Below, piece after piece: positions 3,225 to 60,817 of a stretch of DNA of 64,000 bases (its first letter is position 1; each line of letters begins with the position of its first letter). The position numbers were made by a program, and so were the translations under genes. Origin of the DNA: Candidatus Roizmanbacteria bacterium RIFCSPHIGHO2_12_FULL_37_23. Lineage in GTDB: Bacteria > Patescibacteriota > Microgenomatia > UBA1406 > HO2-37-13b. The stretch spans positions 9,736 through 73,735 of the forward strand of contig MFZX01000031.1 in NCBI GenBank assembly GCA_001788095.1, given 5' to 3'. The notes under the pieces were generated by a model, which saw only the letters and a list, made by a program, of their open reading frames with translations, ran no database searches and was not told the origin of the DNA.

Positions 3225-3249
3225 AGAGAATTCAAATTTATAACATATA

Positions 3250-3396
3250 CCTCGTCATCCCGAACTTGCCCGCCTTGCCACGAGGCACGATTCGGAACCT
3301 CGGCTTTTGTCATGCTGAACCCATCGGGTCTGAGACCCTCGGGGTCGAAGACTTGATTCAGCATCTCGGGATCCTGAAATAAATTCAGGATGACAG
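3250..3396. mobile_element. MITE-like element (about 150 bp) with terminal inverted repeats cgTCATCCcGAA / TTCaGGATGAcag; GC-richer than flanks; internal nested hairpins; right end overlaps the stop codon of the aminotransferase gene
   Basis: TIRs and internal stems (atgctgaa...ttcagcat, gaccc-atc-gggtc, gaccctc-ggggtc, tcctgaa-ataaa-ttcagga) read directly. A related copy lies at 26502-26580. Confidence 0.45.
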
Positions 3397-10483: not shown

Positions 10484-10529
10484 TGTGGACTATTATATCA
10501 CACTACTTGTTTCATTAGCCTCAACCCTG

Positions 10530-10568: not shown

Positions 10569-11444
10569 TTAATGAATATTAAAAAGTCTCAGTGCATTTT
10601 CTGTCGTTATTTTTACTAAATCTTCGATGCTCTCTCCTCGTAACTTCGCTACAAATTCAGCGATAATCGGAAGATTCACAGGTGTATTTGGGTATTGTTT
10701 TTGGGATCGTAAAGGTTCTGGTAGAAGAAATGGCGAGTCTGTTTCTAAGACAAGATGTTCTTGAGGGACCCGCATAATAAATTCCTGTTTTTTCCGTCCT
10801 GGAGGTGAATCATACGTTATATCTCCATCAACACCAATAAAAATATCATGGTTTTTAGCAAAACCTAATAATTCTTCCTCTGGTTCACAGCAATGAAAGA
10901 CTATTCTTCCTCTGAAATATTCCTCCCAATGCTCATTGAGAAGCCCCAGAAGATCATTTTTTGCTTCTCTATTATGTAGAATAACAGATTTTTTGTAATT
11001 CTTTGCAAGTTGTAATTGTTTAATTAAAAATTCTTTCTGAAGATTGAAAAACATTTCGTCAATGTGGTAGTTTTGATATTTAGTATCTTCATATACATGT
11101 TTATCAAGTCCAATCTCACCAACCGCTAAAACCTTCTTTTCCTGGAGAAAATTTTCAATAAATTGTAGTCGTGAAGTAAATTCAGTATGAGCTAAAAACA
11201 CATGATGCGGATGTATTCCCACCGCCGCAAAAACTGACTCATCGCGTGAAGCAATTTCCACAGCTTTCTGTGATGATTCCTCGTCTGTCCCCGGAACCAC
11301 AATGTACTTCACGCCTGACAGGTGTGATAGCCTCAACACATCATCAAGGGTTTTTGCAAAGCGTTTAAAATTGAGGTGCGCGTGGGTATCAAACATGGTT
11401 AAAATAGGTTGGAATAAGTTGTAATAAGTTACAACAGGTTGCAA
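10569..11444 (-). CDS. tatD: TatD-family metal-dependent DNase/hydrolase
   Basis: MFDTHAHLNF..VVPGTD..GEIGLD motifs of the TatD/amidohydrolase fold. Confidence 0.8.
   Translation of the reverse strand: MQPVVTYYNLFQPILTMFDTHAHLNFKRFAKTLDDVLRLSHLSGVKYIVVPGTDEESSQKAVEIASRDESVFAAVGIHPHHVFLAHTEFTSRLQFIENFLQEKKVLAVGEIGLDKHVYEDTKYQNYHIDEMFFNLQKEFLIKQLQLAKNYKKSVILHNREAKNDLLGLLNEHWEEYFRGRIVFHCCEPEEELLGFAKNHDIFIGVDGDITYDSPPGRKKQEFIMRVPQEHLVLETDSPFLLPEPLRSQKQYPNTPVNLPIIAEFVAKLRGESIEDLVKITTENALRLFNIH
11310..11346. repeat. R3 sequence (cacGcctgacaggtgtgatagcctcaacacatcatc) lying in-frame inside tatD (encodes DDVLRLSHLSGVK)
   Basis: About 34/40 identity to the intergenic hairpin at 18747-18795. Confidence 0.4.
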
Positions 11445-13170: not shown

Positions 13171-13196
13171 CCCAAGGTTGTTTAGATTCGTAACCT
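13171..13196 (+). repeat. R1 repeat, partial variant a, at the left edge of GC-rich island 1
   Basis: cccaaggttgtttagattcgtaacct. Confidence 0.4.
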
Positions 13197-14250
13197 GTTG
13201 CAGCTTTGATATGGTGTTGTCCGGGCAAGGAGCTTTTACGTCGTGAAGACGGTTTCCGCGAAGCGGTATAGCCACTTGCCCGAGACAAGCACCTTATGTA
13301 TCGGCTCGTGCCGAATTGTTGTGGAATCGCGATATCGCGCTAGGACAGCCGGCTGCCGCAGTGTACTTCCAGCTTCTTGAGGCTCCCTCCGCAGCCGTAG
13401 TGTGTCATGGTGTTCCAATCCACACCACTTGGGGGCACTGACTGGTGGCATCTGTTGCAGACGAAGTCTGCCACCACTTTGGCGCAACGATCGCCATCAT
13501 CCGGTCGGTCCACACTTCATTTCGTCGACCTCCTTTAGATCGCCGAACCGAAGGGTTGACTTGGATCCTCAGGCATCACACGCCTACCTGTTGTAATCCA
13601 AATCATGTCGTAGCTTCCGCACTCCGGACAAACCTTGAAGTGGTGCCGCCATACCTTTTGGCAATCTGGACACCGTATTATGAAGGGGCCTTGTCTGCTC
13701 CGGCCCTTTTGTTTCCTCCCTGGTCTTGGCATGAATACGAAGTCCTTTCTTTGGTTGGTTAGTCTCCTTTAAGAGACCAAGTCGTGATCGCAGAATACGG
13801 CTCTGCGCTCGCAGTGGCCTCCGCAGTCCGCATGGATGAGTGTGTCTACGACGAGATCTCCGTCATTGACATGCGCATAACACTTAGCGCATACCAGGGC
13901 GGGGATCCGCTGAAGACAAACACCCTGTTCGCGTTCTTGGTCACTCCTACGCTCACCGTGGATTGGACAATGCATGACCTGCTCCTTTCGCGTTTTCGCG
14001 ATGCTGACTCTTATGTCTACGGCGATACTCTGGCACAGTCTTTTGGTCGTGTCGTATGATGGATCTTCGTGTTGGTGAAACTTCAGTCTATTCTGAAGAG
14101 CATGTTCCAAACATCTGTATTTTCCACAGCATTCCATCGCAGATGGTATGCTGCTGTTTTTCTCTTGATTGATAGATTGTAGGCTTTAGTACAAACCTCC
14201 GCCTCTCTATCTCGATGTACGAACACATATAGAACCACGGGAACAAAAGA
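13197..14250. other. GC-rich island 1 (about 1.05 kb, clearly >50% GC): dense short GC hairpins, no convincing long CDS; candidate structured ncRNA or foreign-DNA remnant
   Basis: Abrupt composition shift. Many local palindromes (cgggcaag/cttgcccg, ccgcgaagcgg, cgcgatatcgcg, cagccggctg). Only short Cys-rich ORFs. Confidence 0.5.
13535..13732 (-). CDS. possible small zinc-ribbon protein (CPDC...CPEC)
   Basis: 65-aa ORF with two CxxC pairs. It lies inside the GC-rich island, so coding status is uncertain. Confidence 0.25.
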   Translation of the reverse strand: MPRPGRKQKGRSRQGPFIIRCPDCQKVWRHHFKVCPECGSYDMIWITTGRRVMPEDPSQPFGSAI

Positions 14251-26228: not shown

Positions 26229-26260
26229 ACCGTTTTGTGTTTTCCAACCCTCGGTGTTAT

Positions 26261-26288
26261 AACCCTCGGGGTTGTAACCCCGAGGGTT
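26261..26288 (+). terminator. hairpin aaccctcgggg-ttgt-aaccccgagggtt after the dockerin protein gene
   Basis: 11-bp perfect stem. Confidence 0.5.
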
Positions 26289-26501
26289 AGTTGATACATG
26301 TCTACGAATTGACTTTTCACAACCTTCTATAGTATATTACCTATTATAGGATTATTTTTTGGTGGCATGATTGCGTTTTTCGCACGTGCTGCGTTCTTCG
26401 CGCTCATGCCGCACTTTGAAAGAAACGGCAATTGATATACGAGATACTACTTGCATACGTCTCGTGTGTAGGGTCGAATTGTGGGAAGAATATACCACTA
26501 T

Positions 26502-26580
26502 TGTCATCCTGAATCCGCCTACTGGCGGAATTCAGGATCTCGATTATTCCCGGAATCCGACCCTTCACACCGAATGGTGT
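26502..26580. repeat. second copy of the MITE terminal hairpin (tgtcatcctgaat-ccgcctactggcgga-attcaggatctcga), reverse orientation relative to 3384-3396
   Basis: Matches the reverse complement of 3350-3396. Confidence 0.45.
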
Positions 26581-26672
26581 GTGTAAGTGGTATTAGTGCA
26601 AGGAGAGGAGGTATACAACCAAATACCCGAAGGTCCCGCTAGGGACCCGTATCTGCTGTCATCCGCATCCCC

Positions 26673-27302
26673 GTGAGGGGAAACCCGAAGGAGACGGCCT
26701 TGAGACTCAGGTTCCTCACGCTACTGCTTGCAGTAGCACTCGTGACCACGTTGGCGGCGGCCGCAGCTCCCATGCTCGCGAGCGCCCCGAACGTCAACGA
26801 GACGACGATGGCGAACGCACGCGCGCCTGCTGCGTGGACCAACGACTCCGTGGGGATGAACGACAGGGCGACTTTCGCAAGGATGAGCGCGTCTCGCGCG
26901 GATCCGGTGCCGATCGTGGCCTTCAGCTCGTCGATCTCCGGCCAGGGCATGGTGTACGAGAGCCTGCGGGGCTACACGACTTCGAACGACGAGATCAACG
27001 GCACCGTCTACGCGACGAACGACGGCCGAGCGATCTACATCTACGACCAGAACGCGCTGAGCTCGACGACAACCGCACGGAACGGCACCGCGGCGTGGAC
27101 GAGCGAGAACACGAACGGAACGGCGACGGTGAGCGCTACTGCATGGTCTGATGACCACTACGTAAGGATGAGCCAGCTGGCGCTGAAGATGCCTACCTTC
27201 ACGGCCGACTTCGTGGCGAACGGCGCGACGGCTCGCGTGACCCCCTGGCGGACTGACCAGGTGGCGATCGCGGCAGTGGTGACGGTGGAGCAGCTGCTCT
27301 AG
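26673..27302 (+). CDS. secreted protein with signal peptide and many N-glycosylation sequons; haloarchaeal-like composition (GTG start likely)
   Basis: LLLAVALVTTLAAAAAP signal. NETT, NDSV, NGTV, NGTA sequons. Acidic, Thr/Ala-rich. Confidence 0.4.
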   Translation: MRGNPKETALRLRFLTLLLAVALVTTLAAAAAPMLASAPNVNETTMANARAPAAWTNDSVGMNDRATFARMSASRADPVPIVAFSSSISGQGMVYESLRGYTTSNDEINGTVYATNDGRAIYIYDQNALSSTTTARNGTAAWTSENTNGTATVSATAWSDDHYVRMSQLALKMPTFTADFVANGATARVTPWRTDQVAIAAVVTVEQLL

Positions 27303-27348
27303 CACACGATCAGGAGCGCTGATCTCCGCTGACCTCCTCCAGTAGTTA

Positions 27349-27410
27349 GGGACCGTCCCGGGCCAGTGGCCCTTGACGCGCCGGTTCTCGGTACACGCCG
27401 GGACGGTCCC
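27349..27410. repeat. 13-bp perfect inverted repeat gggaccgtcccgg / ccgggacggtccc with 36-nt spacer
   Basis: Read directly from sequence. Confidence 0.6.
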
Positions 27411-27531
27411 CGAGGAGTTTCATCGAGTAAAATGCATTCATCAGCATTCATCCTCCCCGGCCCCCCGCTCAAGTGCAACACCACTGAGCCAACAACGGAC
27501 TGGGCACCGTTGGATTGGGGGACCATTTGTA

Positions 27532-27603
27532 CCCGGCAGGCCGCTTGGACGCGGAGAGATCGCTCGCGCGATCAATTTGTTCCGTTGAGAACGGCCTGCC
27601 GGG
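27532..27603. repeat. 12-bp perfect inverted repeat cccggcaggccg / cggcctgccggg with 48-nt spacer
   Basis: Read directly from sequence. Confidence 0.6.
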
Positions 27604-27875
27604 AAAACTTTCGGCCAGATGGCGATGACAGGATCAGAAGCCTGCAATAACGCTTACTCGTTCGGCACGAAACGGAACGCCTCCCTTTCGCGTCGACTGG
27701 CTGAGTCGGCTTCTGAGACATCACACGCTGCGCGCGTGCGTTCACTATAGTCAAGCTCGTGCACAGTTTCATCTGAAACTGGCTTGACAAGACTCTGGTC
27801 TCGCGCGCTTCTATCTTTCGACGGGAGATAGAAAGACCAGGGTCTGGTTTCACAGACTCGTATATCAACAGAAAA

Positions 27876-27918
27876 CCCCGATGCAATCGGGGGCCGCTCG
27901 TCACGTATGTGACTTTTT
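27876..27918 (+). terminator. tandem hairpins ccccgat-gcaa-tcgggg and gtcac-gtat-gtgac followed by TTTTT
   Basis: Read directly from sequence. Confidence 0.5.
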
Positions 27919-28075
27919 GATAATTCCCTTCTTTGGGTTTTATTGATTTTTCGCGTGTGTGCGAGCGGTGCCGTTTCTGTTGTTTCTTTTTACATCCTTC
28001 CGTTTGACCTTCCTTATTTGCTTTTCATTAATTGCTTTTCATTAATTGTTTTTCTTTATTTGCTTTTTTCTAATT

Positions 28076-28250: not shown

Positions 28251-28689
28251 GGAAGTTGAATGATATAATAATATGTTTTCCGTCCTATGGGACGGCTTTA
28301 TTTTAAGCAATCCTCAAGCGTAGACATGTATTTTGCTATATGTTGTATGCTCTAGGATAAAGCTCTTTAACAAAACGCACAATAGCAAGAACCTTTTTCC
28401 GTATTTATAGTTGAATAAGTGGGGCCTGTCTCGCTCTCCCTCCCAGCCGGTGCTCCCTCGACACGAGTCGAGGTCCGCTCCGTCGGGAGACCCTTCCGAG
28501 CGAGCCACCCACACAGCGGTATAAATCACTTCAATTATAGATCTGGAAAAAGGTTCTCATATGCCCAAGAGGAGGTGATGAAAACGGGCGCATGTCCCAA
28601 GTCGCAGTTTCTGAGAACCACTGCAAAACCACCTTACCCGCCTTTCGACCTCAGGTCGAAAACACGAACGCCAAGGAGTAGTTAGACAC

Positions 28690-28956
28690 ATGGACGCGAC
28701 CGAGACCGTGTTGGATGATCGTGACGACGGCGAGCGCGAGCCCAGCGACGAGCCCGAGGAGACGGACGGCGATCCCGAGGACGGCGAGGAGACCGACGGC
28801 GACGGCGACGGCGGCGAGACCGGCGACGAGGACGAGCCCGGCGACGAGGAGCCCGAGGACCCGGACGAGGGCGACGACGGTGTCGAGACCGGCGAGGAGA
28901 CCGACGGCGACGGCGGCGAGACCGATCCCGAGGTCCGCCACGAGGAGGACGACTAG
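28690..28956 (+). CDS. extremely acidic small protein (D/E/G/T-rich, 88 aa), haloarchaeal or halovirus-like
   Basis: MDATETVLDDRDDGEREPSDEPEETDGDPEDGEETDGDGDGGETGDEDEPGDEEP... Confidence 0.35.
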   Translation: MDATETVLDDRDDGEREPSDEPEETDGDPEDGEETDGDGDGGETGDEDEPGDEEPEDPDEGDDGVETGEETDGDGGETDPEVRHEEDD

Positions 28957-29167
28957 CGGTGCCGGTCTTCGGCTCTAACAGAGGGGTCTTCGATCCCCAG
29001 GAGACTGCCCTTTCTCACAACGGACCTTGGGGTTACGGGATCCCACACGACCCACCGCGCGACACGTCGCACAAGGACAAGGGTGACAAGCCCGAGAACG
29101 AAGGCGACGACGACCGCGCCACAACCAACTAACCACCGCCGCTTGAGCCACCCGGCTTGAGCTAGTA

Positions 29168-29240
29168 GGGCGGGACCGCCGGTCCCCAGTCCTCCACAGG
29201 TCTGCTGGCAAACCAACCAGCTCACCCGGCGGTCCCGCCC
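29168..29240. repeat. 15-bp perfect inverted repeat gggcgggaccgccgg / ccggcggtcccgccc with 43-nt spacer
   Basis: Read directly; the motif gggcgggacc recurs at 29352. Confidence 0.6.
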
Positions 29241-29305
29241 GTCGCTATCATATTTCGGCACATGCCGAATCCCTGCCCCACGTAAGCGCCGGTTTCCTGG
29301 GCCAC

Positions 29306-29378
29306 AGGGAGCCACCAAACACGCAAGCTCTGGCTTGCAAACGGTTTCTGGGGCGGGACCGGTGTTTGGTGGCTCCCT
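29306..29378. repeat. 17-bp perfect inverted repeat agggagccaccaaacac / gtgtttggtggctccct with 39-nt spacer containing an inner hairpin gcaag-ctctgg-cttgc; lies at the GC-island / AT-rich boundary
   Basis: Read directly from sequence. Confidence 0.6.
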
Positions 29379-29532
29379 TGGGGGCTTTGCTATTTGTGCT
29401 GCACGACACCGAAGGGTTTACGAGATACTGGCAAGAGTTTGTTTCTTGCTTTTTTGTTTTTTTTGTTTTGTATCTTGTTGTTTGTTTGTCCCTTTGGTGT
29501 CGTGTGTTGTAGTTTTAATCATATCTTAATCT

Positions 29533-30654
29533 TTGTCTGCTATTATCTTTCCCATGTCAGACCAAACCCCTTACTACGTCGCCTTCTCATATATGCTGGG
29601 TATTGGGCCTGTTCATTTTGCACAACTTATGCAACGTTTTGGAGATCCAAAATCTGCATATCAAGCAACAACAAAAGATCTTTATAAAATTTTAGGAAGA
29701 AATCTCGCGGAAAAATTTGATACCTTCAGAAAAAAATGTATACCTCATAGTATAGTAAAATACTTGTTAACAAAAAATGTACAAATATTACACCAAGGAT
29801 CTTCATATTACCCAAAAAAACTCGTTCATATACCTGATCCTCCTATTTGTTTATATCTTAGAGGAAATATAAATATCCTACATGAACATCCTGATGATTT
29901 CATAGCAATTGTTGGTACACGAAAACCTAGTTCATATGGCAAAGAGACTACACGACAATGTGTGAAATTATTATGCGAATATGACTATACCATTATTTCT
30001 GGGATGGCTTTAGGGATTGACAGCATAGCCCATTCCTGCGCATTAGACAATGGAGGAAAAACAATAGCTGTCTTAGGATGCGGAATTGAAGTAGTATATC
30101 CCCACCAAAATACACACTTATTTAAAAGGATTTTAGATTGTAATGGCGCTGTTATAAGTGAATTTCCTCCTCCGATGACCACGATGAAAGGTCTTTTTGT
30201 TTCACGCAATCGTATTGTTTCTGGTCTTTCTAAGGCTGTCATTGTCGTAGAGGGTACAGAAAAATCAGGAACTCTCATAACTGCGCGTTATGCAGCAGAA
30301 CAAGGGAGAGACGTCTTTGCAATCCCAGGTGAAATAAATTCTCCCCTCTCTAGAGCCCCAAACTTACTTATTAAAAACGGGGCTACGATCATTACTTCTC
30401 CCCAAGATATTCTTGAATCATACAACACTGAGATAAAAAGTCATGTTCGAAAAACTATCTTAAACTCTGTGGATGCACATGAAAAAATGGTTCTTGAACA
30501 ACTCATCCATGAATCTTCATATATCGACACCATTGCCCGCACAGTGAATATGCCAATTCCACACATAACAAGCATACTTACATCACTTGAAATCAAGGGA
30601 TTTATTGCAAAAAACGATAAAGGAGAATATTATATAACGAATGGATATACGTAA
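29533..30654 (+). CDS. dprA: DNA processing protein A (DprA/Smf)
   Basis: Rossmann-like DprA core: VISGMALGIDSIAHSCALDNGGKTIAVLGCGIEVVYP...; C-terminal winged helix. Confidence 0.8.
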   Translation: MSAIIFPMSDQTPYYVAFSYMLGIGPVHFAQLMQRFGDPKSAYQATTKDLYKILGRNLAEKFDTFRKKCIPHSIVKYLLTKNVQILHQGSSYYPKKLVHIPDPPICLYLRGNINILHEHPDDFIAIVGTRKPSSYGKETTRQCVKLLCEYDYTIISGMALGIDSIAHSCALDNGGKTIAVLGCGIEVVYPHQNTHLFKRILDCNGAVISEFPPPMTTMKGLFVSRNRIVSGLSKAVIVVEGTEKSGTLITARYAAEQGRDVFAIPGEINSPLSRAPNLLIKNGATIITSPQDILESYNTEIKSHVRKTILNSVDAHEKMVLEQLIHESSYIDTIARTVNMPIPHITSILTSLEIKGFIAKNDKGEYYITNGYT

Positions 30655-47757: not shown

Positions 47758-50157
47758 TTACAGCTTAGCTCGTTGTACCGTCTCTGCTTCAACAAGCTCT
47801 TTAGGCTTACCGTATTTTAGACGAGATAACTGAATAATAGCTTTTGCTATCTTATCATTTGCCTTGTCTTTGAAATTCGTCATGTCTTTTGTCATATCAA
47901 CTGAAAATGGTGGAACAGGTTCATTACTTACAATGGTTTTCATATATGCGTGATATCGATCAATATTAATAAGATCTGTTTCTGAAAAAACTGGCTGGAA
48001 TTCACGTGCAATATATGAAGCGTCTGTCACTCCAACACGAAAACAACACAAGGTTCCCACGTTACCAAACACTGCATTTTTAACTTCTTCTTCCATCTGT
48101 CCAATAAATTGATTCGCAACAGTAAGGCCTAATCGATATTTTCGTGCTTCAGAAAGTATGGTTGCAAAATCTGGTGTTGCAAAATTCTGGAACTCATCTA
48201 CATATAGGAAAAAATCTTTACGTTCATCTTCCGGAATTTCTTGTCTTGACATCGCAGATATTAAAATTTTAGGGATAAGTACCAGTCCAAGAAAGCTTGA
48301 GTTTTCTTCTCCAAGCTTACCCTTACTTAGATTTATAAGAAGAATTTTCTTCTCATCCATAACCTTCCGGAAATCAAATGCTGACTTAGATTGACCAATA
48401 ATATTACGAATAGTAGTATTTGTTACAAAGCGTCCAAATTTTGAGACTATATAATCAAGCGTTTCTGATTTATGGAAATCGCTTGTTTGGGCTATCTGAT
48501 CAGTCCAAAATCGTCGTACAATCGGATCTTTTACTTTAGGAAGTACTTCCTGCACATATTTTGTATCTGTTAAGATACGAACAATTTCGATAAAAGTAGC
48601 CCCCTCTTCTGCCATAACAGTCAACATTGCATTTCGAACAGTATGTTCAAACCGCGGACCTACGATACCAGTGCGCTGTGGATCGTATAATTTATACATA
48701 AGATTAATTATTCCTGTTGTCATGAAATGTTTTTCTTCTTCAGAATTAGCTTCAAGAAGATTGAGTCCCATTGGTCTATCGGTATCAGAGGGATCAAAAT
48801 AAATGACATCTTCGGCTCGCTCAGGAGGAATATAGCGTAACAACCCTTCAACCAAATCTCCGTGAGGATCTATAACACACACGCCGTGGCCTGCCTCAAT
48901 ATCCTGTACTGCCATATCATGGAGAAGTACTGATTTTCCAACACCTGTTTTTCCAATAATATAGACGTGTCGGCGTCTGTCTTCAAGCAACACGTGTACA
49001 GGTCTCCTAACGCCTCGATAATGACCGTGACCAATAAATGTTCCACCTTCTTGAGGTACTTCGGAAGAAACAGGCGCAGTTTTAGCCTTAACCCATACGA
49101 TAAAGGGTGTTTCAACGGTTTTATTTGGGAAATGAAAAAGTGTAGCTAACTCCTCAGAAGACAAAACTGAGACTGTTTTCATAAATGGAAACTCAAATAC
49201 AGGGAAAAATTTATAGATAAAATTAACCATAAACCCGTATGAAAAAAAGGCTCGAGCGCCTGTGAAACTATTGAGATCTGACGCGAATTGAGAAAATGCT
49301 GTTTTGAGATTTTTGAGGTGGAGATCAGCCATTTCTTTTGTTTGCGCTGATGTTACAAGACGAATCGCTACATCAAAACCGGGCTTGGTCACCTTTTCAT
49401 CAATCTTCTCAAGAACCTTTTGATCAACTCTAAACGTAGCTTCTTCAGGCGAAGCCTCCTTCTTTTTGGTTGAGGATATATATGATCTCCCTTCATCTCT
49501 ATGTTTGGATTTTGTTGACCGTATAAGGATCTGTATTATGCTTCCCTCATCATCTCCTAATTTAGAAAATGGTGATGAAATCAATGAAAGCGAATCTGTT
49601 GGGAGTTCTTTATAGGTTTTTATTGGATTAAAGGCTGAGTTTTTCTGTTTTAAAGCAACAAAAGCAACCTTACCATTTTCATGAAAAATATTGGGCTCTT
49701 CAACCAGACTAATATCGCACGAGGGGTAGAATGCATAAATTTGTTTTTCAACGAGGTCTTTAAGCCGTGCTGGAGCTGAAACATAAAACCCAATTTTTCC
49801 TTTAGTTCCGATTATTTCAAAAGCGAGAGCGTCATCAACTTCAAAAAATGACCAGAGCCCACTGTTTCCGAGCGAGGCAAATGAAGAAAACATTTGTTCA
49901 GCTGCATCAATTTTTATCTCGTTATCTTTAGGCAATCGAACTTCGAGTGTGATCATCTCGAGTGAAATCTTCTCCCTCTTTCGCAAACGAATGAAAATAA
50001 CCAATACATATATACCAATTGCTACTATCGCAAGCGTGATAATAACAGCAAAGAAGATTATGAGCGATACAATCAGCCCATTGAGAATTTCAGTACCAAC
50101 AGACTCCATAGTAGCATTATACAGAATTGTTGAATTCCTTGTTATAATATTCCCCAT
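47758..50157 (-). CDS. VirD4/TraG/TraD-like coupling-protein ATPase (FtsK/HerA superfamily), N-terminal TM
   Basis: YIIGKTGVGKS Walker A, DPHGD, YVDEFQNF Walker B, membrane anchor; 799 aa. Confidence 0.5.
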   Translation of the reverse strand: MGNIITRNSTILYNATMESVGTEILNGLIVSLIIFFAVIITLAIVAIGIYVLVIFIRLRKREKISLEMITLEVRLPKDNEIKIDAAEQMFSSFASLGNSGLWSFFEVDDALAFEIIGTKGKIGFYVSAPARLKDLVEKQIYAFYPSCDISLVEEPNIFHENGKVAFVALKQKNSAFNPIKTYKELPTDSLSLISSPFSKLGDDEGSIIQILIRSTKSKHRDEGRSYISSTKKKEASPEEATFRVDQKVLEKIDEKVTKPGFDVAIRLVTSAQTKEMADLHLKNLKTAFSQFASDLNSFTGARAFFSYGFMVNFIYKFFPVFEFPFMKTVSVLSSEELATLFHFPNKTVETPFIVWVKAKTAPVSSEVPQEGGTFIGHGHYRGVRRPVHVLLEDRRRHVYIIGKTGVGKSVLLHDMAVQDIEAGHGVCVIDPHGDLVEGLLRYIPPERAEDVIYFDPSDTDRPMGLNLLEANSEEEKHFMTTGIINLMYKLYDPQRTGIVGPRFEHTVRNAMLTVMAEEGATFIEIVRILTDTKYVQEVLPKVKDPIVRRFWTDQIAQTSDFHKSETLDYIVSKFGRFVTNTTIRNIIGQSKSAFDFRKVMDEKKILLINLSKGKLGEENSSFLGLVLIPKILISAMSRQEIPEDERKDFFLYVDEFQNFATPDFATILSEARKYRLGLTVANQFIGQMEEEVKNAVFGNVGTLCCFRVGVTDASYIAREFQPVFSETDLINIDRYHAYMKTIVSNEPVPPFSVDMTKDMTNFKDKANDKIAKAIIQLSRLKYGKPKELVEAETVQRAKL
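50138..50143 (+). promoter_or_regulatory. TATAAT -10 box 12 nt upstream of the ATG at 50156
   Basis: gttataatattccccATG. Confidence 0.3.
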
Positions 50158-51090: not shown

Positions 51091-51933
51091 TTACAACTCT
51101 CCCAATTTCTCTTTTCTCTCGTTATCCTGCTTCACTAAATCAAGATATTTTTCGGTTGAAGAAAGCCGTTTATGACCAACGATTTTTGAAATATATGAAA
51201 TTGAAGCCCCATTTTGAAGTTGGTATGCAATAAATGTGTTTCTGAGGTCTTGGACTTTTGCATTTTCGATCCCAACCTCTCTAAAACAACGAGTAATTAT
51301 GCTTCTTATGTTACGAACAAGTAATTGACGCCCTGTCTTTGTGGTAAACAAAAACTCTGTGCTTCCGCTATATCGAATCTTAAGATAGTCACTAACTGCC
51401 TTTCGTACAGCCTTATTTAAAGGTATAACTCTGTTTTCAACTTTAAGACCTTCATCTGTAATATCATTTGTCTTGATCTCGGCTAGCTCACCAATACGAA
51501 CACCGGTTTGAAGTAGAATTTCAACCATAGCATAAGTTCTGTCATCTTCTTTTGCAAAGTCTCTTAACGCACGATATTCCAGTTTTGAAAGAATTCGAGG
51601 CGGAGCTTGTGTATATTTGGGATGAGAAACTTCAAGCGAAGGATTTTGCTTGATAATATCTTCTCTTTTAAGATATCTGAAAAAAGTGCGGATTGAGTTA
51701 AGCTTACGGGAAGCTGACTTTTTAGTGTAATTCTCACCTAAGAGTTTTTGAATAAAACCCTCAATATCATCTTTTGCTACCTCTTTAATATCGGTTTTAT
51801 CCTTAGAACTGAGGTAACCTATGAATTGCTCGAGGTCCTTTTTATATGCTACAATGGTGTGTTGGGACTTGCCCTGACTATCCAGATACTCGATAAATGA
51901 AGTTACGAGTGATCTGAGATCTGATGTGATCAT
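51091..51933 (-). CDS. tyrosine site-specific recombinase (XerC/XerD-like)
   Basis: N-terminal SAM-like core-binding domain, R...HxxR...Y catalytic layout (LRNTF, VGHKRLSSTEKYLDL). Confidence 0.7.
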   Translation of the reverse strand: MITSDLRSLVTSFIEYLDSQGKSQHTIVAYKKDLEQFIGYLSSKDKTDIKEVAKDDIEGFIQKLLGENYTKKSASRKLNSIRTFFRYLKREDIIKQNPSLEVSHPKYTQAPPRILSKLEYRALRDFAKEDDRTYAMVEILLQTGVRIGELAEIKTNDITDEGLKVENRVIPLNKAVRKAVSDYLKIRYSGSTEFLFTTKTGRQLLVRNIRSIITRCFREVGIENAKVQDLRNTFIAYQLQNGASISYISKIVGHKRLSSTEKYLDLVKQDNERKEKLGEL

Positions 51934-51997: not shown

Positions 51998-52336
51998 ATG
52001 TTTCGAGTAATAAAAAACATAATTTTGAGCGTAGTAGCTCTTTTTCTCATCTTCTCTTTATCTCGAAATATCTTCGATTATAAAGATAAACTTAAGTTCT
52101 ATCATGAATATAGAAGGGAATATGAGCAGGAAAACGAGCTTAATAAAAGATTAAAAAGTGAGCTTAAAAAAAGTGAGGATTATTATTTTATAGAAAAACA
52201 AATTCGTGAAAAGTTGAACCTGCTTCAGCCTCAAGAAGAAGCTCTCATTCTGCCAAAAATCTCAACAACTCCAACTCTGCCTCCAGTTATAGTAAAAAAA
52301 CCATATGAGCAGTGGCTAGAACTTCTTATACGCTAA
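51998..52336 (+). CDS. FtsB/DivIC-like septum formation initiator
   Basis: N-terminal TM, coiled coil, EKQIREKLNLLQPQEEALIL C-terminal signature. Confidence 0.45.
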   Translation: MFRVIKNIILSVVALFLIFSLSRNIFDYKDKLKFYHEYRREYEQENELNKRLKSELKKSEDYYFIEKQIREKLNLLQPQEEALILPKISTTPTLPPVIVKKPYEQWLELLIR

Positions 52337-52503
52337 GATACTACTTCGGAGCGATATAACCTTATACTACGGGACAATTTTGATATAATAATACCGCTCT
52401 TTGAAAAAGCGGGATTCTTGTTGGTGATTGGTGTAGTTGGCCGAGTTAGTTAATTCGTCCGTACATAGCTCGTAATGAGCTCTACACCCAGAAGGAGAGT
52501 TCG

Positions 52504-53109
52504 ATGTCCACTGTGGTCGCGTTGTTCCTGGCCTATTTCCTCGGTGCGATCCCGTGGGGGATCGTATTTTGCCGGCTGGCAAACGGTCGTGATCCGAGAG
52601 AGCACGGATCCAGCCGAACCGGAGGAACAAACGTCTACAGGACGTCTGGGCCTATCCCAGCTATACTCACCGTTGGGTTTGATGTTGCCAAGGGCTATGC
52701 TGCCGTCATTTTGGCAAGCCAGCTCTCCGGCGGAAGCCCGATCGTGATCTCACTCGCCGCAGTGCTCGCAATAGCCGGGCACAACTGGTCCGTCTTCGCC
52801 GGTTTCAAAGGGGGTGCCGGAACGACGCCGAACGTTGGTGCCTTACTGGCGATCTTCCCCCAAATGGTCGTAGTCGCGCTTGGGCTCAGCGCGATTACAC
52901 TGATCATTTGGAGACAAGCGTCGCGAGCGACCATCATCAACTCTCTCGCGACCACAGGTGCAACTGGCGGTCTCGCGTTGTTAGTTTCCCCTGCCTATCT
53001 ACTTTACGGCGTAGGACAGCTTGCACTAGTGCTCTACGCGCTGTATCAGGGGGGGAACCTTCGGCGCCTGATCCACGGAAACGAAATCCGAGCTGAGCGG
53101 ATTAGGTAG
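52504..53109 (+). CDS. plsY: glycerol-3-phosphate acyltransferase PlsY (acyl-phosphate dependent)
   Basis: GAIPWG, GSSRTGGTNVYR (compare GSGNPGATN), HNWSVFAGFKGGAGTTP (compare H-x-x-S-x-F-x-x-FKGGKGVAT). Confidence 0.75.
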   Translation: MSTVVALFLAYFLGAIPWGIVFCRLANGRDPREHGSSRTGGTNVYRTSGPIPAILTVGFDVAKGYAAVILASQLSGGSPIVISLAAVLAIAGHNWSVFAGFKGGAGTTPNVGALLAIFPQMVVVALGLSAITLIIWRQASRATIINSLATTGATGGLALLVSPAYLLYGVGQLALVLYALYQGGNLRRLIHGNEIRAERIR

Positions 53110-53117
53110 CTCTACCA

Positions 53118-53324
53118 ATGGTCCTAGGAAGGACTACGATGATGACAAAAAAACCTGACGACTCCGAGGCTTCAACCACACCAGTAGTACCGACACGGTG
53201 TATGTCCACAGACACGTGTCCGCACTGCGACGCGTTTTGCTGCAAAGATGGTCACAGTCTGATGGACAATCATCGTTGTCCCAATGGGCACGAGTGGGAA
53301 GCAGCACCTTCCTTGTTGATCTGA
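53118..53324 (+). CDS. possible small Cys/His-rich metal-binding protein
   Basis: CMSTDTCPHCDAFCCKDGHSLMDNHRCPNGHEW; GC-rich; coding status uncertain. Confidence 0.25.
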   Translation: MVLGRTTMMTKKPDDSEASTTPVVPTRCMSTDTCPHCDAFCCKDGHSLMDNHRCPNGHEWEAAPSLLI

Positions 53325-53560
53325 TGAGATCCCGCTGTACGTCTCGCTGAGGCTAGCAGACGCTAAAACAACATATGGGTAAAAGCCTTTCGAGGTGACA
53401 AGAGTGATGAAGTACTCATCGTGGAATCCGATCGCAGAAGCAAGCGATCCTGCGTTAGCGATAACGCACTACCACGACAATCACCTTGCTCACCGAGAAT
53501 ACCCATATGAAAATTTTTAATTTCTAATTTTTATTCAATTATTAATTACGCTCTATCTGC

Positions 53561-53566
53561 TATAAT
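53561..53566 (+). promoter_or_regulatory. TATAAT -10 box 6 nt upstream of the tRNA-Met 5' end
   Basis: ctgcTATAATacagtCGCGGGG. Confidence 0.45.
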
Positions 53567-53571
53567 ACAGT

Positions 53572-53641
53572 CGCGGGGTAGTGTACGGTAGCACAGGAGG
53601 CTCATAATCTCCTAGACCAGGTTCAACTCCCGGCCCCGCAA
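53572..53641 (+). tRNA. tRNA-Met (anticodon CAT at 53603-53605); C1/A72 mismatch suggests initiator tRNA
   Basis: Manual cloverleaf: acceptor cgcgggg/ccccgca, U8, D-stem gtgt/gcac, anticodon stem ggagg/tctcc with loop cTCATAa, T-arm ccagg-ttcaact-cccgg (one mismatch), discriminator A. Length 70 nt. Confidence 0.55.
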
Positions 53642-53646
53642 CACGA

Positions 53647-54528
53647 TTACCCCATCATACTTCCTATTAATTCCTCAAATTCCATCATACTTCTCTCTTC
53701 AAAAAGCATCTCCATGGCTGTTATTGATTCGTCAAAATGTATAAAATACTGTTCTCTAAGTACGGATTGTACATCATCTGGAAGCCCAAAAAGCTCATAA
53801 TTAAGACGTTGCTTCCTACCTGCGATAAAATCCTGCTGAAGGTATGTCCACCCCAAAATTTGCCCTTTAACTGTCAGTTTTTCTGTATCAGAAATATTAC
53901 CTTTAGCAATCTGTTCAACAAGCATGATATTATCTTCAAAAAAAAGATTGTCTGCATCACGAATAATTCCCTCAGGTCCTTCCAAAGCAGCTGTACCAAT
54001 GTCTGCATATGCAATAGCTCTAGAAATTAAAGTGCTTCCTGAATTTAAGCTTGGCTGATAAACCGTTGTATTTTCAACGTCCCAGGCCGGAACAGTATCG
54101 TGAATAGATGCAACAACGAGTCTAATTTCACCTTTTGAATACGCTGGCAATCCATCAAGGGTTTTTGCACTTCGCATGGCTTCTGCTGCCCTTTGAGCAC
54201 TCACGTACTCATTATGTGGGGCTTTACGTACTCTTTTCCCATCAACCACATCATAGTCTTGGATAATATCGTGAAATGCCCCTGCTATAAGTACAAGATC
54301 ATAATCGCGGTCAGAAACAAGATCTGGCTGGACACTTCTTACTATGTCTAGAAAGGCTACCGCACGATTCATAACTAAAATTGTGTGATCCAATGAATGG
54401 TAAGGTTTATCTTTGTGTTGAACCTGAATTTCTTTTAATGCATTCACCACCAAATCATGCGTAGCTAAAATCTTCGTCTCTCTAAGAAAAAACTCGCCTG
54501 ATGTTACATATACTTCTGGATTTCCCAT
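53647..54528 (-). CDS. HD-domain phosphohydrolase
   Basis: H...HD...H...D arrangement (HSLDHT, AFHDII). Confidence 0.55.
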   Translation of the reverse strand: MGNPEVYVTSGEFFLRETKILATHDLVVNALKEIQVQHKDKPYHSLDHTILVMNRAVAFLDIVRSVQPDLVSDRDYDLVLIAGAFHDIIQDYDVVDGKRVRKAPHNEYVSAQRAAEAMRSAKTLDGLPAYSKGEIRLVVASIHDTVPAWDVENTTVYQPSLNSGSTLISRAIAYADIGTAALEGPEGIIRDADNLFFEDNIMLVEQIAKGNISDTEKLTVKGQILGWTYLQQDFIAGRKQRLNYELFGLPDDVQSVLREQYFIHFDESITAMEMLFEERSMMEFEELIGSMMG

Positions 54529-54593
54529 GTTGAGAAAAGAATACTATGGGTTTCTTAAAAAGACTGTTCTGGAAGGAACAAATTAGATTGTGT

Positions 54594-55226
54594 CTATATA
54601 ACAGTTATGTTATTGAATGAGAGTTTTATTTTCTTTTCATCTACTAATGTATGTAGGGCTTCGGTTAGGCGTGGACGAGTGACACCGACGAGTTGGGCTA
54701 ATCTTTCATGAGATACATTAATGGTCTTGTTTTCAAAAAAATGACTTAGTTCCTGAAGCAGGATCCACACTTTTTCCGGTAAATGTTTCGTTTTCTGTAT
54801 GAGCAAAAGGTTGTTTTCTTTTTGAATACGGCCAGATAAATCTTTTAATAGTTCCTGCATAAGCGCAGGGTCTGATTTTAAAATAGCTTTGAAATCGTCC
54901 CGCGATATAACTAAAGTTTCAACATCTGACAATGCTTCTACTGTTGCAGATCGGGTTTTATCTGTTACTACTCCTAATTCACCAACCGATTGACCCTTGT
55001 GAAGAAGAGTAATAGGGACAATAGTACCATCTTCCAAAAGACTATAAACTGCCACGATGCCTTTCGTAATAAATTGAATATCCTTTGAATCATCTCCTTC
55101 ACACATAAGTACATCTCCCTGGAAAAAAGTTTTCAATTTTGCAACTTCACTAACTTTTACTAAAATATTTTCAGGAAGATTCCTTAATATATCCTGTTCT
55201 CTAAGTGAAGACTTCTTGTCTAACAT
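54594..55226 (-). CDS. Crp/Fnr-family transcriptional regulator (cNMP-binding plus HTH)
   Basis: N-terminal beta-roll cNMP-binding region, C-terminal HTH RLAQLVGVTRPRLTEALHTL. Confidence 0.65.
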   Translation of the reverse strand: MLDKKSSLREQDILRNLPENILVKVSEVAKLKTFFQGDVLMCEGDDSKDIQFITKGIVAVYSLLEDGTIVPITLLHKGQSVGELGVVTDKTRSATVEALSDVETLVISRDDFKAILKSDPALMQELLKDLSGRIQKENNLLLIQKTKHLPEKVWILLQELSHFFENKTINVSHERLAQLVGVTRPRLTEALHTLVDEKKIKLSFNNITVI

Positions 55227-55345
55227 GCTTAAATTGTATCAAAGTAAAGATATTTTGTTGTTCTGTGGGGAACAAATTTTTGTGGTATGTTTTCACACAT
55301 CCACGCAAATCACTCCAGAATTTAAATAGGAAGCTCTAAAGAAAC

Positions 55346-55630
55346 TTAGTCGGAAATATCTTCATCTATCAGGCCAATCTCGATATCACCCAAAGGGGTG
55401 TAGGTATATCTAATCGTTGCGCATCCGGTTTGTACTGAAGTTATCCTCCCACCGGAATCAACACTCATAATAGCTGTATAGTTTCTATTTCCAACAAAAA
55501 CATTTCTGCCAGATAACATATGGGCACTGATCTCAGGGCCCGAAACAACTTTTTCTAGAAAATCACCCCCAGAAGCATCAAGCATTTCTTCAAGACTACT
55601 ATAAGGTCTTCCTGTAAGTTCAGCTGACAT
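55346..55630 (-). CDS. hypothetical protein
   Basis: 94-aa ORF. Confidence 0.3.
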   Translation of the reverse strand: MSAELTGRPYSSLEEMLDASGGDFLEKVVSGPEISAHMLSGRNVFVGNRNYTAIMSVDSGGRITSVQTGCATIRYTYTPLGDIEIGLIDEDISD

Positions 55631-55679
55631 ATAAAACTATTATACTATAGGATTATCTATATTGCAAACCTCATATTAG

Positions 55680-55712
55680 CCTCAAATCCCACCTCGGGAG
55701 TGGGATTTGAGC
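55680..55712. repeat. R2 hairpin repeat; a partial second half-site lies at 55746-55760
   Basis: cctcaaatcccac-CTCGGGA-gtgggatttgagC. Confidence 0.55.
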
Positions 55713-55785
55713 GTGATTTTAAGTAATTTTATTTAATTTTAATTTGAGTGGGATTTGAGGTCGGGCTGATGTCAAACTTATGAGG

Positions 55786-56013
55786 TTACTTCGTTTTCTT
55801 CCCACTAAGCGCTTCTTTGAAGTCTTTCCACCACTTAGTAAGCTGTTTATTTGTTTCTTTACCAGCAGACATACTAAAACCTAAATCCAAAGCCCCTCCT
55901 GCAACAAGCATGGGGAGGCCAAATATAGCCCCAACAGCAATAACACCAATAGTAATTTTGTCAAACACTTTCCTCGTCTTTTCCAGTACATTATCCTCGG
56001 TTTCCTTAGCCAT
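55786..56013 (-). CDS. small membrane protein
   Basis: 75 aa, one TM. Confidence 0.3.
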   Translation of the reverse strand: MAKETEDNVLEKTRKVFDKITIGVIAVGAIFGLPMLVAGGALDLGFSMSAGKETNKQLTKWWKDFKEALSGKKTK

Positions 56014-56056
56014 GACAGTTATATTATAATCGAGAATAGAAATTCAGGTACCTAAA

Positions 56057-58735: not shown

Positions 58736-59122
58736 CTACGGTGTATCTCCGGGTATTTCGAACTCAAGGATACTGTGTTCTAATCCAAGAAGGATATTTA
58801 TTGCGTTTAAAATAAGATACGAACCTAAGAATAGTGCTGTTCCAATCAGAGCATACTTTAAGGTTCCTTGCGCCTTTTTAACACGCTCCGGATCTCCACC
58901 AGAAGTTAAATAGAAAAATGAGCCTACAACAAACATGATAAAAAGTACTAATACAACAAGTCCTGAGGAAAGAATTAATATATTACTGAATACCACCTCG
59001 AGACATTTAAGTGTTGGAACACCATCGACTACACACGAATTCCCTTCGAGGCTTTCTATTTGGGCATACGCAGAAAAAGAAGGAAGTAGAGAAAAGAATC
59101 TGCTTGAAGCTGATAATGGCAT
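58736..59122 (-). CDS. VirB2/TrbC-like pilin paralogue (signal peptide, two TM helices, TSGGDPERV loop)
   Basis: SAYAQ signal cleavage motif, then hydrophobic-loop-hydrophobic topology shared with 59125-59553. Start set at MPLSAS. Confidence 0.4.
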   Translation of the reverse strand: MPLSASSRFFSLLPSFSAYAQIESLEGNSCVVDGVPTLKCLEVVFSNILILSSGLVVLVLFIMFVVGSFFYLTSGGDPERVKKAQGTLKYALIGTALFLGSYLILNAINILLGLEHSILEFEIPGDTP

Positions 59123-59124
59123 TT

Positions 59125-59553
59125 TTATGGTGTACCTGGGGGTTCCAAAAGATTTGGCAACGTAACCGGGCATGAAATACCGAAACATAGTTGCTGATCA
59201 AAAACAATCTGCTCAAGACTCCACATAACCGTTAAGGTCGTAATAATAACCAACACGCCTACAAGAGCAGCTATAATCTTACCTCGTGCCGCAGCAACAT
59301 TATCCTTATCTCCACCTGAAGTTACCCAAGCTAATGCTCCCCAAAGTAGAAAAAAGAGCGCTGCGATACCTGCAATAACGAAAAAGAGTCGTACCATGAA
59401 CGAAAGTAATTCTCCAAAGGTTGGTACAGAAAATCCAAGGTCTACTTCGTTAATCTGTATATCTCCTGGAGCAGGTTGAGCATAAACTGAAGAAGAAAGC
59501 TTCATCAAAAAAAGAAATGCCGTTGCAAAAAAGCTTGTTAGAATAGTACGCAT
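59125..59553 (-). CDS. VirB2/TrbC-like pilin paralogue
   Basis: SVYAQP signal; TM1; TSGGDKDNVAAARGKIIAALVG loop; TM2. Confidence 0.4.
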   Translation of the reverse strand: MRTILTSFFATAFLFLMKLSSSVYAQPAPGDIQINEVDLGFSVPTFGELLSFMVRLFFVIAGIAALFFLLWGALAWVTSGGDKDNVAAARGKIIAALVGVLVIITTLTVMWSLEQIVFDQQLCFGISCPVTLPNLLEPPGTP

Positions 59554-60168: not shown

Positions 60169-60705
60169 TTACCCAAATCCTGGTAATCCTAATCCTGTTG
60201 AGATCACTCGAAGTATAAATACTGAGAAAAGCGCGAATAATAACCCGATAATTGCTCCATAAATGATGCGCTTACCGTAATTCAAACGTGCTGGATCTGA
60301 ACGTGATGTGGCAACAACCCCTGCGCCATAGAGGAAGAAAAGAAATGCAATTCCCCCTATTATGGAAAAGAAAAAACTTGAAACTGCGGTTGCAAACTCC
60401 CCTGGGAGAGTTGATATACAACCGAAATCTGTATAAAAATGTTCAGGATCCGGTGTTGGTAAACCAATAAGAGTACTATTTGAACTTGGATCTATATCTC
60501 CTTCTCCAAATCCGCGATAGAGACATCGGCGGCAGTCCTGCCATCTGCCTGGAAGTATTGCTCCCTCACAGTATCCACACACATCACAATTTGCTTTACC
60601 AATATATGGCGTCGGTGTTGGTGTGGGAGGTTGCTGCGCATTAGCTGGAAAGACATTCACAAATAGTGAAGTAACAAGAATAAGTAATAAAAAGATTTTA
60701 TTCAT
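60169..60705 (-). CDS. Cys-rich secreted domain fused to VirB2/TrbC-like pilin module
   Basis: PANAQQ signal, CDVCGYCEG..CRRC, then two hydrophobic helices with ATSRSDPARL loop. Start set at MNKIF. Confidence 0.35.
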   Translation of the reverse strand: MNKIFLLLILVTSLFVNVFPANAQQPPTPTPTPYIGKANCDVCGYCEGAILPGRWQDCRRCLYRGFGEGDIDPSSNSTLIGLPTPDPEHFYTDFGCISTLPGEFATAVSSFFFSIIGGIAFLFFLYGAGVVATSRSDPARLNYGKRIIYGAIIGLLFALFSVFILRVISTGLGLPGFG

Positions 60706-60817
60706 AGGACTTGATTCATTATATATCACTCTACTTTGATTATGCAAAAATTGGTATATACCGACCGTAGCCGCGATTAAATCGGGGCGAAGGGGTATAG
60801 TCAATGTTTGGGAAATT

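Follow-up and report, generated by a model that had tools for sequence, protein, structure and literature searches.

A gene of foreign origin, plsY, coding for a homologue of acyl-phosphate:glycerol-3-phosphate acyltransferase, was identified in a stretch of 64,000 nucleotides (nt) from Candidatus Roizmanbacteria bacterium RIFCSPHIGHO2_12_FULL_37_23 (contig MFZX01000031.1; the whole stretch is hereafter called the window). It lies in a GC-rich segment upstream of a tRNA-Met gene and downstream of the genes for a Xer-type tyrosine recombinase and a DivIC/FtsB-like septum protein (divIC), and this gene order, given in an earlier note made from the sequence alone, was confirmed by annotation (Table 1). 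Based on its composition at synonymous sites, the presence of three empty sites in relatives, the lack of any homologue above 51% identity, and the Chloroflexota affinity of its nearest relatives, plsY is regarded as a xenologue, as the note had suggested, and its recent import from a foreign source is close to certain. The explanation as a whole, that a Chloroflexota-like plsY segment of about 1.1 kb was acquired and that the function of its product is the one expected from the family, is considered quite probable.

The mean GC content of the window is 0.394. When measured in 150-nt windows, a patch from about 52440 to about 53470 shows values of 0.50-0.62, against a background of 0.37-0.39 and between adjoining sequences of 0.25-0.41, and plsY, with 201 codons for amino acids (aa), is the only convincing gene within it. 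The GC content of plsY is 0.583 and that of its third codon positions (GC3) 0.639, as compared with a GC3 of 0.28 +/- 0.032 (maximum 0.368) for 40 other open reading frames (ORFs) of the window with 150 aa or more, which corresponds to a z of about +11; the description of plsY as clearly GC-rich was thus accurate. The gene exceeds its flanks by 0.213, whereas in 80 other organisms with a related plsY the difference is +0.022 +/- 0.025 (maximum +0.081). These values bear on a first alternative, that plsY is native and vertically inherited, with a GC content set by the amino acids of a membrane protein and with losses in the relatives. Richness in Gly and Ala does raise the GC content of the first and second codon positions, and PlsY is encoded by some bacteria of the candidate phyla radiation (CPR) (PMC7242380), but the excess is greatest at the synonymous positions and is therefore not due to a Gly/Ala-rich membrane-protein composition. 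In addition, the non-coding tail of about 360 bp after plsY (53110-53470) is likewise GC-rich (0.50-0.53). Together with the empty sites and the homologue searches described below, these findings make a native origin highly improbable.

The site was compared with the corresponding loci of relatives. The distance from the divIC stop codon to tRNA-Met is 78 nt in L097, 107 nt in L090 and 214 nt in L092, as against 1235 nt in the window; in all three relatives tRNA-Met, 87-92% identical to that of the window, stands directly downstream of divIC, and the Xer recombinase is 84-85% identical to its window counterpart. The DivIC orthologues of these loci and of two others, L091 and L098, are 112-113 aa in length. 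The short spacer is thus uninterrupted in three relatives, and the transfer should be younger than the split from the relatives with an 84-85% identical Xer.

No homologue of the window PlsY above 51% identity was detected by a word-indexed search of 5.8 billion proteins or by phmmer run exhaustively against 1.84 billion representatives, and only six sequences gave an E value below 1e-30, while for Xer many homologues at 80-85% were found. Judging from these identities, an orthologue in the relatives with an 85%-identical Xer would have turned up in the protein searches. If plsY were shared with the relatives of the host, clustering with their proteins and a similar GC content of their genes would be expected; there is no orthologue at the site and none above 51% in the protein collections that were searched. 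The best 80 species-representative matches are almost all from Chloroflexota (Anaerolineae, Dehalococcoidia, Ardenticatenales, and Chloroflexia), the rest being a few Veillonella and other Bacillota, with no Patescibacteria among them. The phylogeny proposed in the earlier note was constructed by neighbour-joining of 180 sequences, in which no named CPR PlsY was included, and placed the window protein, with a moderate bootstrap support of 70/100, as sister to a clade of 16 sequences including one from an Anaerolineae metagenome-assembled genome (MAG), inside the Chloroflexota radiation. In this sister clade the loci have a GC content of 0.66-0.71, equal to that of the gene, and plsY looks native there; it lies near the ATP-synthase operon in three contigs, in one of which (L094) ApbA comes directly after it, and the plsY-ApbA order is seen as well on a more distant Chloroflexota-like contig (L102; 40% identity, GC 0.66).

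Horizontal transfer of plsY is well supported by these observations, the affinity of the gene being to Chloroflexota. The donor was a GC-richer organism, with a genome GC content of probably about 53-60% as estimated from loci in which the gene has a comparable GC content. Most of the 49% divergence must predate the transfer, because GC3 shows no decay toward the host value; the donor lineage is therefore unsampled. Plasmids and phages were considered as the vector and rejected: their best tblastn matches are at most 36% identical and represent canonical plsY genes, and none of the IMG/VR contigs encodes the window type of PlsY.

The junctions of the insert are identical in at least nine assemblies (JGI, ENA, and NCBI, including two MAGs) from at least seven samples with private single-nucleotide polymorphisms (SNPs), and all 24 long contigs with an identical DivIC have plsY directly after divIC. 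The contigs sharing the 12.6-kb arrangement are 10-80 kb long where shown, with lengths up to 174 kb on record for the protein cluster; relative to the window they carry 0-3 private SNPs over 12.6 kb, which makes the population almost clonal. A protein identical to this PlsY has been deposited for Candidatus Roizmanbacteria bacterium RIFCSPLOWO2_02_FULL_37_1..., annotated as hypothetical, so that the host belongs to the CPR. An assembly or binning artefact, in which a Chloroflexota fragment was chimerically joined into a Roizmanbacteria contig, might be suspected since the source is a MAG and chimeras typically show sharp GC steps, but the arrangement recurs in JGI data, in ENA data (megahit-style k141 contigs) and in two NCBI MAGs with differing private SNPs, and the insert is only about 1.1 kb long with host sequence on both sides within one contig; an artefact is scarcely conceivable. 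The exact DivIC sequence is indexed in 70 blocks (38 with contigs below 5 kb) and that of PlsY in 39 (9 below 5 kb), a gap that could be caused by assembly breakage at the GC step or by strains without the insert. The 12.6 kb contain a single variable stretch, seen in the ENA assembly L002 (6980-7030, corresponding to window positions 53487-53527).

Since the GC-rich DNA ends near a tRNA gene and a XerC/D-like recombinase gene is close by, the earlier note had taken both as landmarks of a genomic island. A classical island, with the recombinase as its integrase and with insertion at tRNA-Met, is very unlikely, even though the tyrosine recombinase, the tRNA and the DNA of foreign composition all lie inside 2.6 kb. 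The recombinase (280 aa) matches Pfam Phage_integrase and the SAM-like N domain; its best NCBIfam models are XerC, XerD and XerA, all below their cutoffs, and with the integron integrase model TIGR02249 it scored 47 bits against a cutoff of 265. Its GC content of 0.367 and GC3 of 0.30 are those of native genes, more than 100 protein clusters, several of them named Roizmanbacteria or Microgenomates, match it at 68-85% identity, and it adjoins divIC in all five relatives examined (L090, L091, L092, L097, and L098), those with an empty site included. Because of this native composition, the conserved clusters, and the position beside divIC in relatives without plsY, the recombinase is the housekeeping Xer of the lineage and not as an island integrase. 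The distance of 1.4 kb given for it in the earlier note holds for its far end; between its near end and the plsY start there are 571 nt, and divIC separates the recombinase gene from the insert. The insert lies 5' of tRNA-Met and of its promoter box, with at least 60 nt between its end and the tRNA; no repeat of the tRNA-Met sequence was found at the insert, the sole flanking direct repeat being a 10-nt promoter-type box.

The neighbourhood of divIC and tRNA-Met does vary among the relatives, as would be the case for an island. In the closed 938-kb genome L091, the divIC-tRNA-Met spacer (2783-4585) is occupied by a gene for a protein of 229 aa, a NikA-like gene and a methyltransferase gene, and tRNA-Met stands in inverted orientation. 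On the 3' side of tRNA-Met (53647-56056 in the window) the genes are different in every relative and form a variable region of native GC content: a protein of 293 aa, a Crp-like regulator and small ORFs in the window, a CopG antitoxin and an SQS_PSY-like protein in L092, methyltransferases in L091 and L097, and almost nothing in L090.

The left edge of the insert was located within 52391-52440 and the right edge within 53470-53510. The sequence to the left of the insert resembles the spacers of the relatives and ends with the box TGATATAATA, with which the start coordinate of the earlier note, 52380, coincides. The motif TGNTATAATA occurs seven times in the window, starting at 10491, 20283, 28261, 33733, 50140, 52381, and 53558, as compared with 1.0 expected, and in none of 100 shuffles was the number of seven reached. 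One of these copies stands in the AT-rich gap that separates the GC-rich patches at 26.5-29.4 kb. A box of the TGCTATAATA type precedes tRNA-Met here and in every relative, and since the box stands directly upstream of the tRNA, TGNTATAATA is probably the strong extended -10 promoter element of this organism. The two boxes on both sides of the insert were considered as a target-site duplication, but the empty-site spacer of L092 also carries two TGNTATAATA-type boxes, so that both are probably ancestral. A possible terminal inverted repeat, 52423-52437 and 53471-53485, with 12 of 15 positions matching, brackets the GC-rich patch, but was rejected as evidence: the rough chance expectation of such a pair is about 1 in 10, two further matches with three mismatches exist in the window, and 4 of 100 shuffles equalled the total of four matches.

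Downstream of plsY, an imperfect branched hairpin of 138 nt forms the right edge of the insert. Its minimum free energy is -55.8 kcal/mol as against -28.2 +/- 3.5 for shuffled sequences (z -7.9), and folding is weaker on the minus strand (53325-53520; z -4.1). In L002 the 3' arm carries a 1-nt deletion and two C-to-T changes, together with small changes in the AT-rich tract after the hairpin; the structure is weakened but kept (z -6.7). In L092 the empty-site spacer lacks structure (z +0.2). We take the hairpin to be a putative insulator of the terminator type that separates plsY from the promoter of the tRNA. Rfam searches of this hairpin and of all GC-rich patches at permissive thresholds gave only the tRNA. 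No copy of the hairpin was found in IMG/VR contigs, and a metagenome scan with a 19-mer from the hairpin tip gave three unrelated chance matches and did not recover the source organism itself.

Besides the plsY patch, the window contains three intergenic patches with GC contents of 0.50-0.74 and lengths of about 0.9-1.4 kb, at 13180-14100, 26500-27900, and 28350-29400. They gave no Pfam or Rfam matches and are mostly without credible genes, although their ORFs are recorded in many assemblies and in four NCBI protein records. No similarity among the four patches was found by blastn, and unmasked tblastx gave only compositional noise, which was discarded. The ORF at 26673-27302 (plus strand, 209 aa, GC 0.648, GC3 0.85) codes for an N terminus resembling a signal peptide. 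Several Roizmanbacteria MAGs list its product as hypothetical, and it looks like a second foreign gene from a donor much GC-richer than that of plsY. Hairpins of about 40-140 nt stand at the patch edges (26246-26288, 26470-26564, 27866-27982, about 29275-29385, 13209-13297, and 53372-53509), with shuffle z values from -3.5 to -7.9, those for 150-nt windows being -4.8 to -7.9, and no shared sequence; several are followed by T-rich tracts. In a structure scan with 160-nt windows, the five strongest outliers of the 64 kb were all within about 150-250 nt of patch edges, and the plsY hairpin ranked seventh. GC-rich patches (0.52-0.62) were also observed in relatives, at 7200-8000 in L091 and 7000-9400 in L092, between the genes for RNase H and the coupling protein of a type IV secretion system (T4SS); they contain the strongest hairpins of their loci, including perfect GC stems of 12-15 bp.

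These structures raise the possibility of a cassette-like mobile unit, either with an integron-like attC, with a folded att that exploits Xer as in CTX phage, or with hairpin ends of the IS200/IS605 type. attC sites are imperfect hairpins of 57-141 nt, and the ORF followed by a 138-nt imperfect hairpin falls within this range. The patch-edge hairpins are the strongest structure outliers of the window, alike in structure but not in sequence, with the same in relatives, and the L091 locus closes with the first nucleotides of a gene for a Y1 (IS200/IS605-type) transposase (10838-10843). A cassette is nevertheless unlikely. The integron R boxes RYYYAAC/GTTRRRY are absent from both strands at the stem base, CATATGGGTA/TACCCATATG, as inspected by eye with no dedicated attC model run, and none of the other patch-edge hairpins has them; no integron integrase is present, and the patches are dispersed and not arrayed. 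The fold of the left edge (52391-52510), including the hairpin CCGCTCTTTGAAAAAGCGG, has an overall z of only -1.5, some of the patch-edge hairpins may act as transcription terminators for native or imported genes, and no second copy of the plsY hairpin was found in viral or metagenome contigs. A still broader proposal, that the lineage repeatedly installs GC-rich foreign segments of about 1 kb into spacers as hairpin-ended units, of which plsY is one, with the Chloroflexota-like donor perhaps as the physical host of these episymbiotic cells, is likewise rather doubtful. If true, it would mean that foreign DNA is captured in a cassette-like or uptake-linked manner of which no CPR example has been described, and the plsY unit would supply the committed step of phospholipid synthesis. 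Genes for DNA handling occur in the vicinity, namely DprA (29533-30654) and a TraG/TrwB/HerA-like coupling ATPase with DUF8128 (47758-50157); genes of the T4SS-pilin family lie at 58736-59553 and 60169-60804, as context and not as evidence.

The product of plsY is, by sequence and predicted fold, a member of the PlsY family. Residues 9-177 match PF02660 with 113.7 bits (gathering score 24.1; E 1.2e-32), and residues 6-196 align end to end with Aquifex aeolicus PlsY (PDB 5XJ5; E 8e-16). An AlphaFold2 model was obtained with a predicted local distance difference test (pLDDT) score of 94.1 and a predicted template modelling (pTM) score of 0.90; by Foldseek it matched 5XJ5-5XJ8 with TM scores of 0.83-0.88 and a root-mean-square deviation of 2.0-2.2 A over 197-202 columns, the next match having an E value of 0.44. 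In Aquifex PlsY, the phosphate of glycerol-3-phosphate (G3P) is clamped by Ser35, Arg45, Lys104, and Asn180, and its 2-OH is liganded by Ser142 and His177 (Li et al. 2017, PMC5700162), while the acyl-phosphate site consists of Thr41, His92, and the Gly-rich loop 102-107, in which position 104 acts via its backbone amide (PMC5700162). Ser35, Thr41, Asn42, Arg45, His92, Gly102, Gly103, Gly105, and Asn180 of the Aquifex enzyme are kept in the window protein. The acyl-phosphate site is thus retained (Thr42 and His93 in window numbering, with the loop GGAG at 102-105), only position 104 being different, whereas the G3P clamp and 2-OH ligand set is incomplete: Ser35, Arg45, and Asn180 remain, with Ala for Lys104, Leu for His177, and Thr for Ser142. 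The combination N37R/K104A/H177L is common to about 120 of 183 aligned sequences and represents the Chloroflexota type, while the PlsY of Aquifex, Bacillus, E. coli, Veillonella, and Clostridia keep N/K(R)/H at positions 37/104/177; Arg37 may replace the lost Lys104. Some PlsY of Dehalococcoidia and Chloroflexia are intermediate, with Arg37, Arg104, and His177.

A number of observations weigh against the explanation as a whole. On the side of function, the score for the equivalog model TIGR00023 is 109.2 bits, below the cutoff of 137.2; the replacements of Asn37 by Arg, Lys104 by Ala, and His177 by Leu depart from the Aquifex enzyme, and the protein passes Pfam but misses the equivalog cutoff because of such residue changes in the Chloroflexota-type variant. 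The change of Gly36 to Ser in motif 1 is unique to the window PlsY, the sole loss among the residues invariant in the subfamily, and no plsX, plsC, fak, cdsA or other lipid gene was found within the 64-kb window. As the population is so nearly clonal, selection on plsY cannot be measured. On the side of origin, the tree lacks named CPR PlsY and is moderately supported, and the hairpins at plsY and the other patches hint at an insertion mechanism more specific than random capture.

A further alternative is that plsY has the same foreign origin but is functionally inert, as one of several GC-rich foreign pieces acquired by this lineage, perhaps through DNA uptake, and intact only through its recency. 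The three other GC-rich patches of the window are mostly gene-poor, with similar ones in relatives, about 360 bp after plsY look non-coding, key residues of the canonical enzyme are missing in addition to the unique G36S, partner lipid genes are absent from the window, and DprA and T4SS-like genes lie nearby. Against this stand the complete ORF with a consensus ribosome-binding site, the retention of all but one subfamily-invariant residue, and the fixation of the insert in all long contigs sampled; random capture of a 1.1-kb fragment would not be expected, as its likeliest result, to place exactly one complete gene, start signals included, in the correct orientation behind a promoter box of the host. 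An inert plsY is a serious possibility but the less probable one, and the chance that plsY is functional is put at even or somewhat better.

In the preferred explanation, one Roizmanbacteria species would have taken about 1.05-1.1 kb of foreign DNA from a GC-richer organism, its plsY branching beside the Anaerolineae-containing clade of Chloroflexota, into the short spacer between the divIC/ftsB-like gene and tRNA-Met. Read most simply, the DNA would have landed between two TGNTATAATA boxes that were already there, and its cargo was a single intact gene, plsY, preceded by a strong ribosome-binding site; plsY could then be read from the first, host-type TGNTATAATA box and would have been transcribable at once, and the 138-nt hairpin with the T-rich tract would separate it from the tRNA promoter. 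By family membership, the product is expected to transfer the acyl group of acyl-phosphate to glycerol-3-phosphate, yielding lysophosphatidic acid, and would thus provide a cell that lacks fatty-acid synthesis with the first phospholipid intermediate from scavenged fatty acids, as long as acyl-phosphate is available from PlsX or a fatty-acid kinase. Neither Xer nor the tRNA is implicated in the insertion, for which integration of taken-up DNA by illegitimate recombination or short homology is assumed by default.

The Cys/His-rich small ORF adjacent to plsY, to which the earlier note had also drawn attention, does consist of GC-rich DNA and is an open frame, but no evidence was obtained that it is a gene, and it was rejected as such. 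Its GC content is 0.52, with 0.48/0.54/0.54 by codon position and no GC3 excess; an alternative start at 53139, with a GGAAGGA box upstream, gives 61 aa. It has no Pfam or NCBIfam match and no homologue in the word-indexed protein search, its exact sequence is absent from a collection of 15 billion proteins, no counterpart was detected by tblastn beside plsY in 82 loci of Chloroflexota and others, and it is uncalled by the gene callers in every assembly examined. On the contig of the closest PlsY (P0002), an ORF of 64 aa directly follows plsY. As for the right flank of the insert, the topmost pair in the acceptor stem of tRNA-Met, C1/A72, is mismatched, as in bacterial initiator tRNA, and the anticodon stem is without the three consecutive G-C pairs.

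Table 1. Features at the plsY locus (positions in the window).
Feature	Position	Strand	Remarks
Xer-type tyrosine recombinase gene	51091-51933	-	Native context, outside the insert
DivIC/FtsB-like septum protein gene	51998-52336	+	PF04977, E 6.6e-8; GC 0.32; native left flank
Candidate plsY promoter TGATATAATA, extended -10-like box	52381-52390	+	114 nt before the plsY start; inferred
Foreign inserted segment, about 1.05-1.1 kb	52391-53510	+	From GC profile and short spacers in relatives
Short hairpin CCGCTCTTTGAAAAAGCGG	52394-52412	.	Left edge of the insert zone; flagged terminator-like, minus strand
AAGGAG, Shine-Dalgarno-like	52492-52497	+	6 nt ahead of the plsY ATG; read from sequence
plsY, acyl-phosphate:glycerol-3-phosphate acyltransferase homologue, Chloroflexota-type variant	52504-53109	+	PF02660, E 1.2e-32
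Cys/His-rich open frame, 68 aa, probably not a gene	53118-53324	+	No family match or homologue
Imperfect branched hairpin, 138 nt	53372-53509	+	Right edge of the insert; followed by AAAATTTTTAATTT
tRNA promoter box TGCTATAATA, native, inferred	53558-53567	+	4 nt before tRNA-Met; aligns with L090, L092, and L097
tRNA-Met (CAT), native right flank	53572-53642	+	ARAGORN; Rfam RF00005, 46.7 bits

Bacteria of the CPR (Patescibacteria) are thought to rely on other cells for their membrane lipids. The recent gain of the first phospholipid acyltransferase from an unrelated phylum would be a small natural experiment on which step is worth importing, and plsY is a concrete gene to be expressed and assayed. 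The Chloroflexota-type N37R/K104A/H177L combination contradicts the 'invariable' G3P pocket of the canonical enzyme and merits biochemical study, and the Chloroflexota affinity of the donor is a testable clue to the cell partners or DNA sources of these bacteria.

A single horizontally acquired gene islet is a familiar kind of finding, and the locus can be compared with several known systems. It is similar to tRNA-associated islands with a tyrosine integrase in that DNA of foreign composition lies by a tRNA in a neighbourhood variable among relatives, but is different from them with respect to the island integrase, the att repeats and the insertion at the tRNA 3'-end, all of which are absent from this one-gene 'islet' of about 1.1 kb. 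With an integron cassette it shares a single ORF followed by an imperfect hairpin of about 138 nt and a total length of about 1 kb; it differs in having no R-box consensus, IntI, array or attI, and in having its own ribosome-binding site and a possible upstream promoter. The protein resembles canonical PlsY (PF02660/TIGR00023; Aquifex PlsY, 5XJ5-5XJ9) in full-length homology and in the multi-helix membrane fold of about 200 residues, but departs from the enzymes of Aquifex, Bacillus, and E. coli by N37R, K104A, H177L, G36S, and Ser142Thr. A PlsY in CPR bacteria has a precedent, since Nealsonbacteria encode PlsY and PlsC without PlsX, and lysolipids were enriched in CPR-sized cell fractions (Probst et al. 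2020, PMC7242380), a study that did not address the origin of the Nealsonbacteria plsY and plsC genes. In both cases a first acyltransferase is present in a CPR lineage without recognisable fatty-acid synthesis, with the same question of the acyl-phosphate source; the window gene differs from that of Nealsonbacteria in being a recent import, as judged from its foreign GC3 and the empty sites, and in belonging to the Chloroflexota type.

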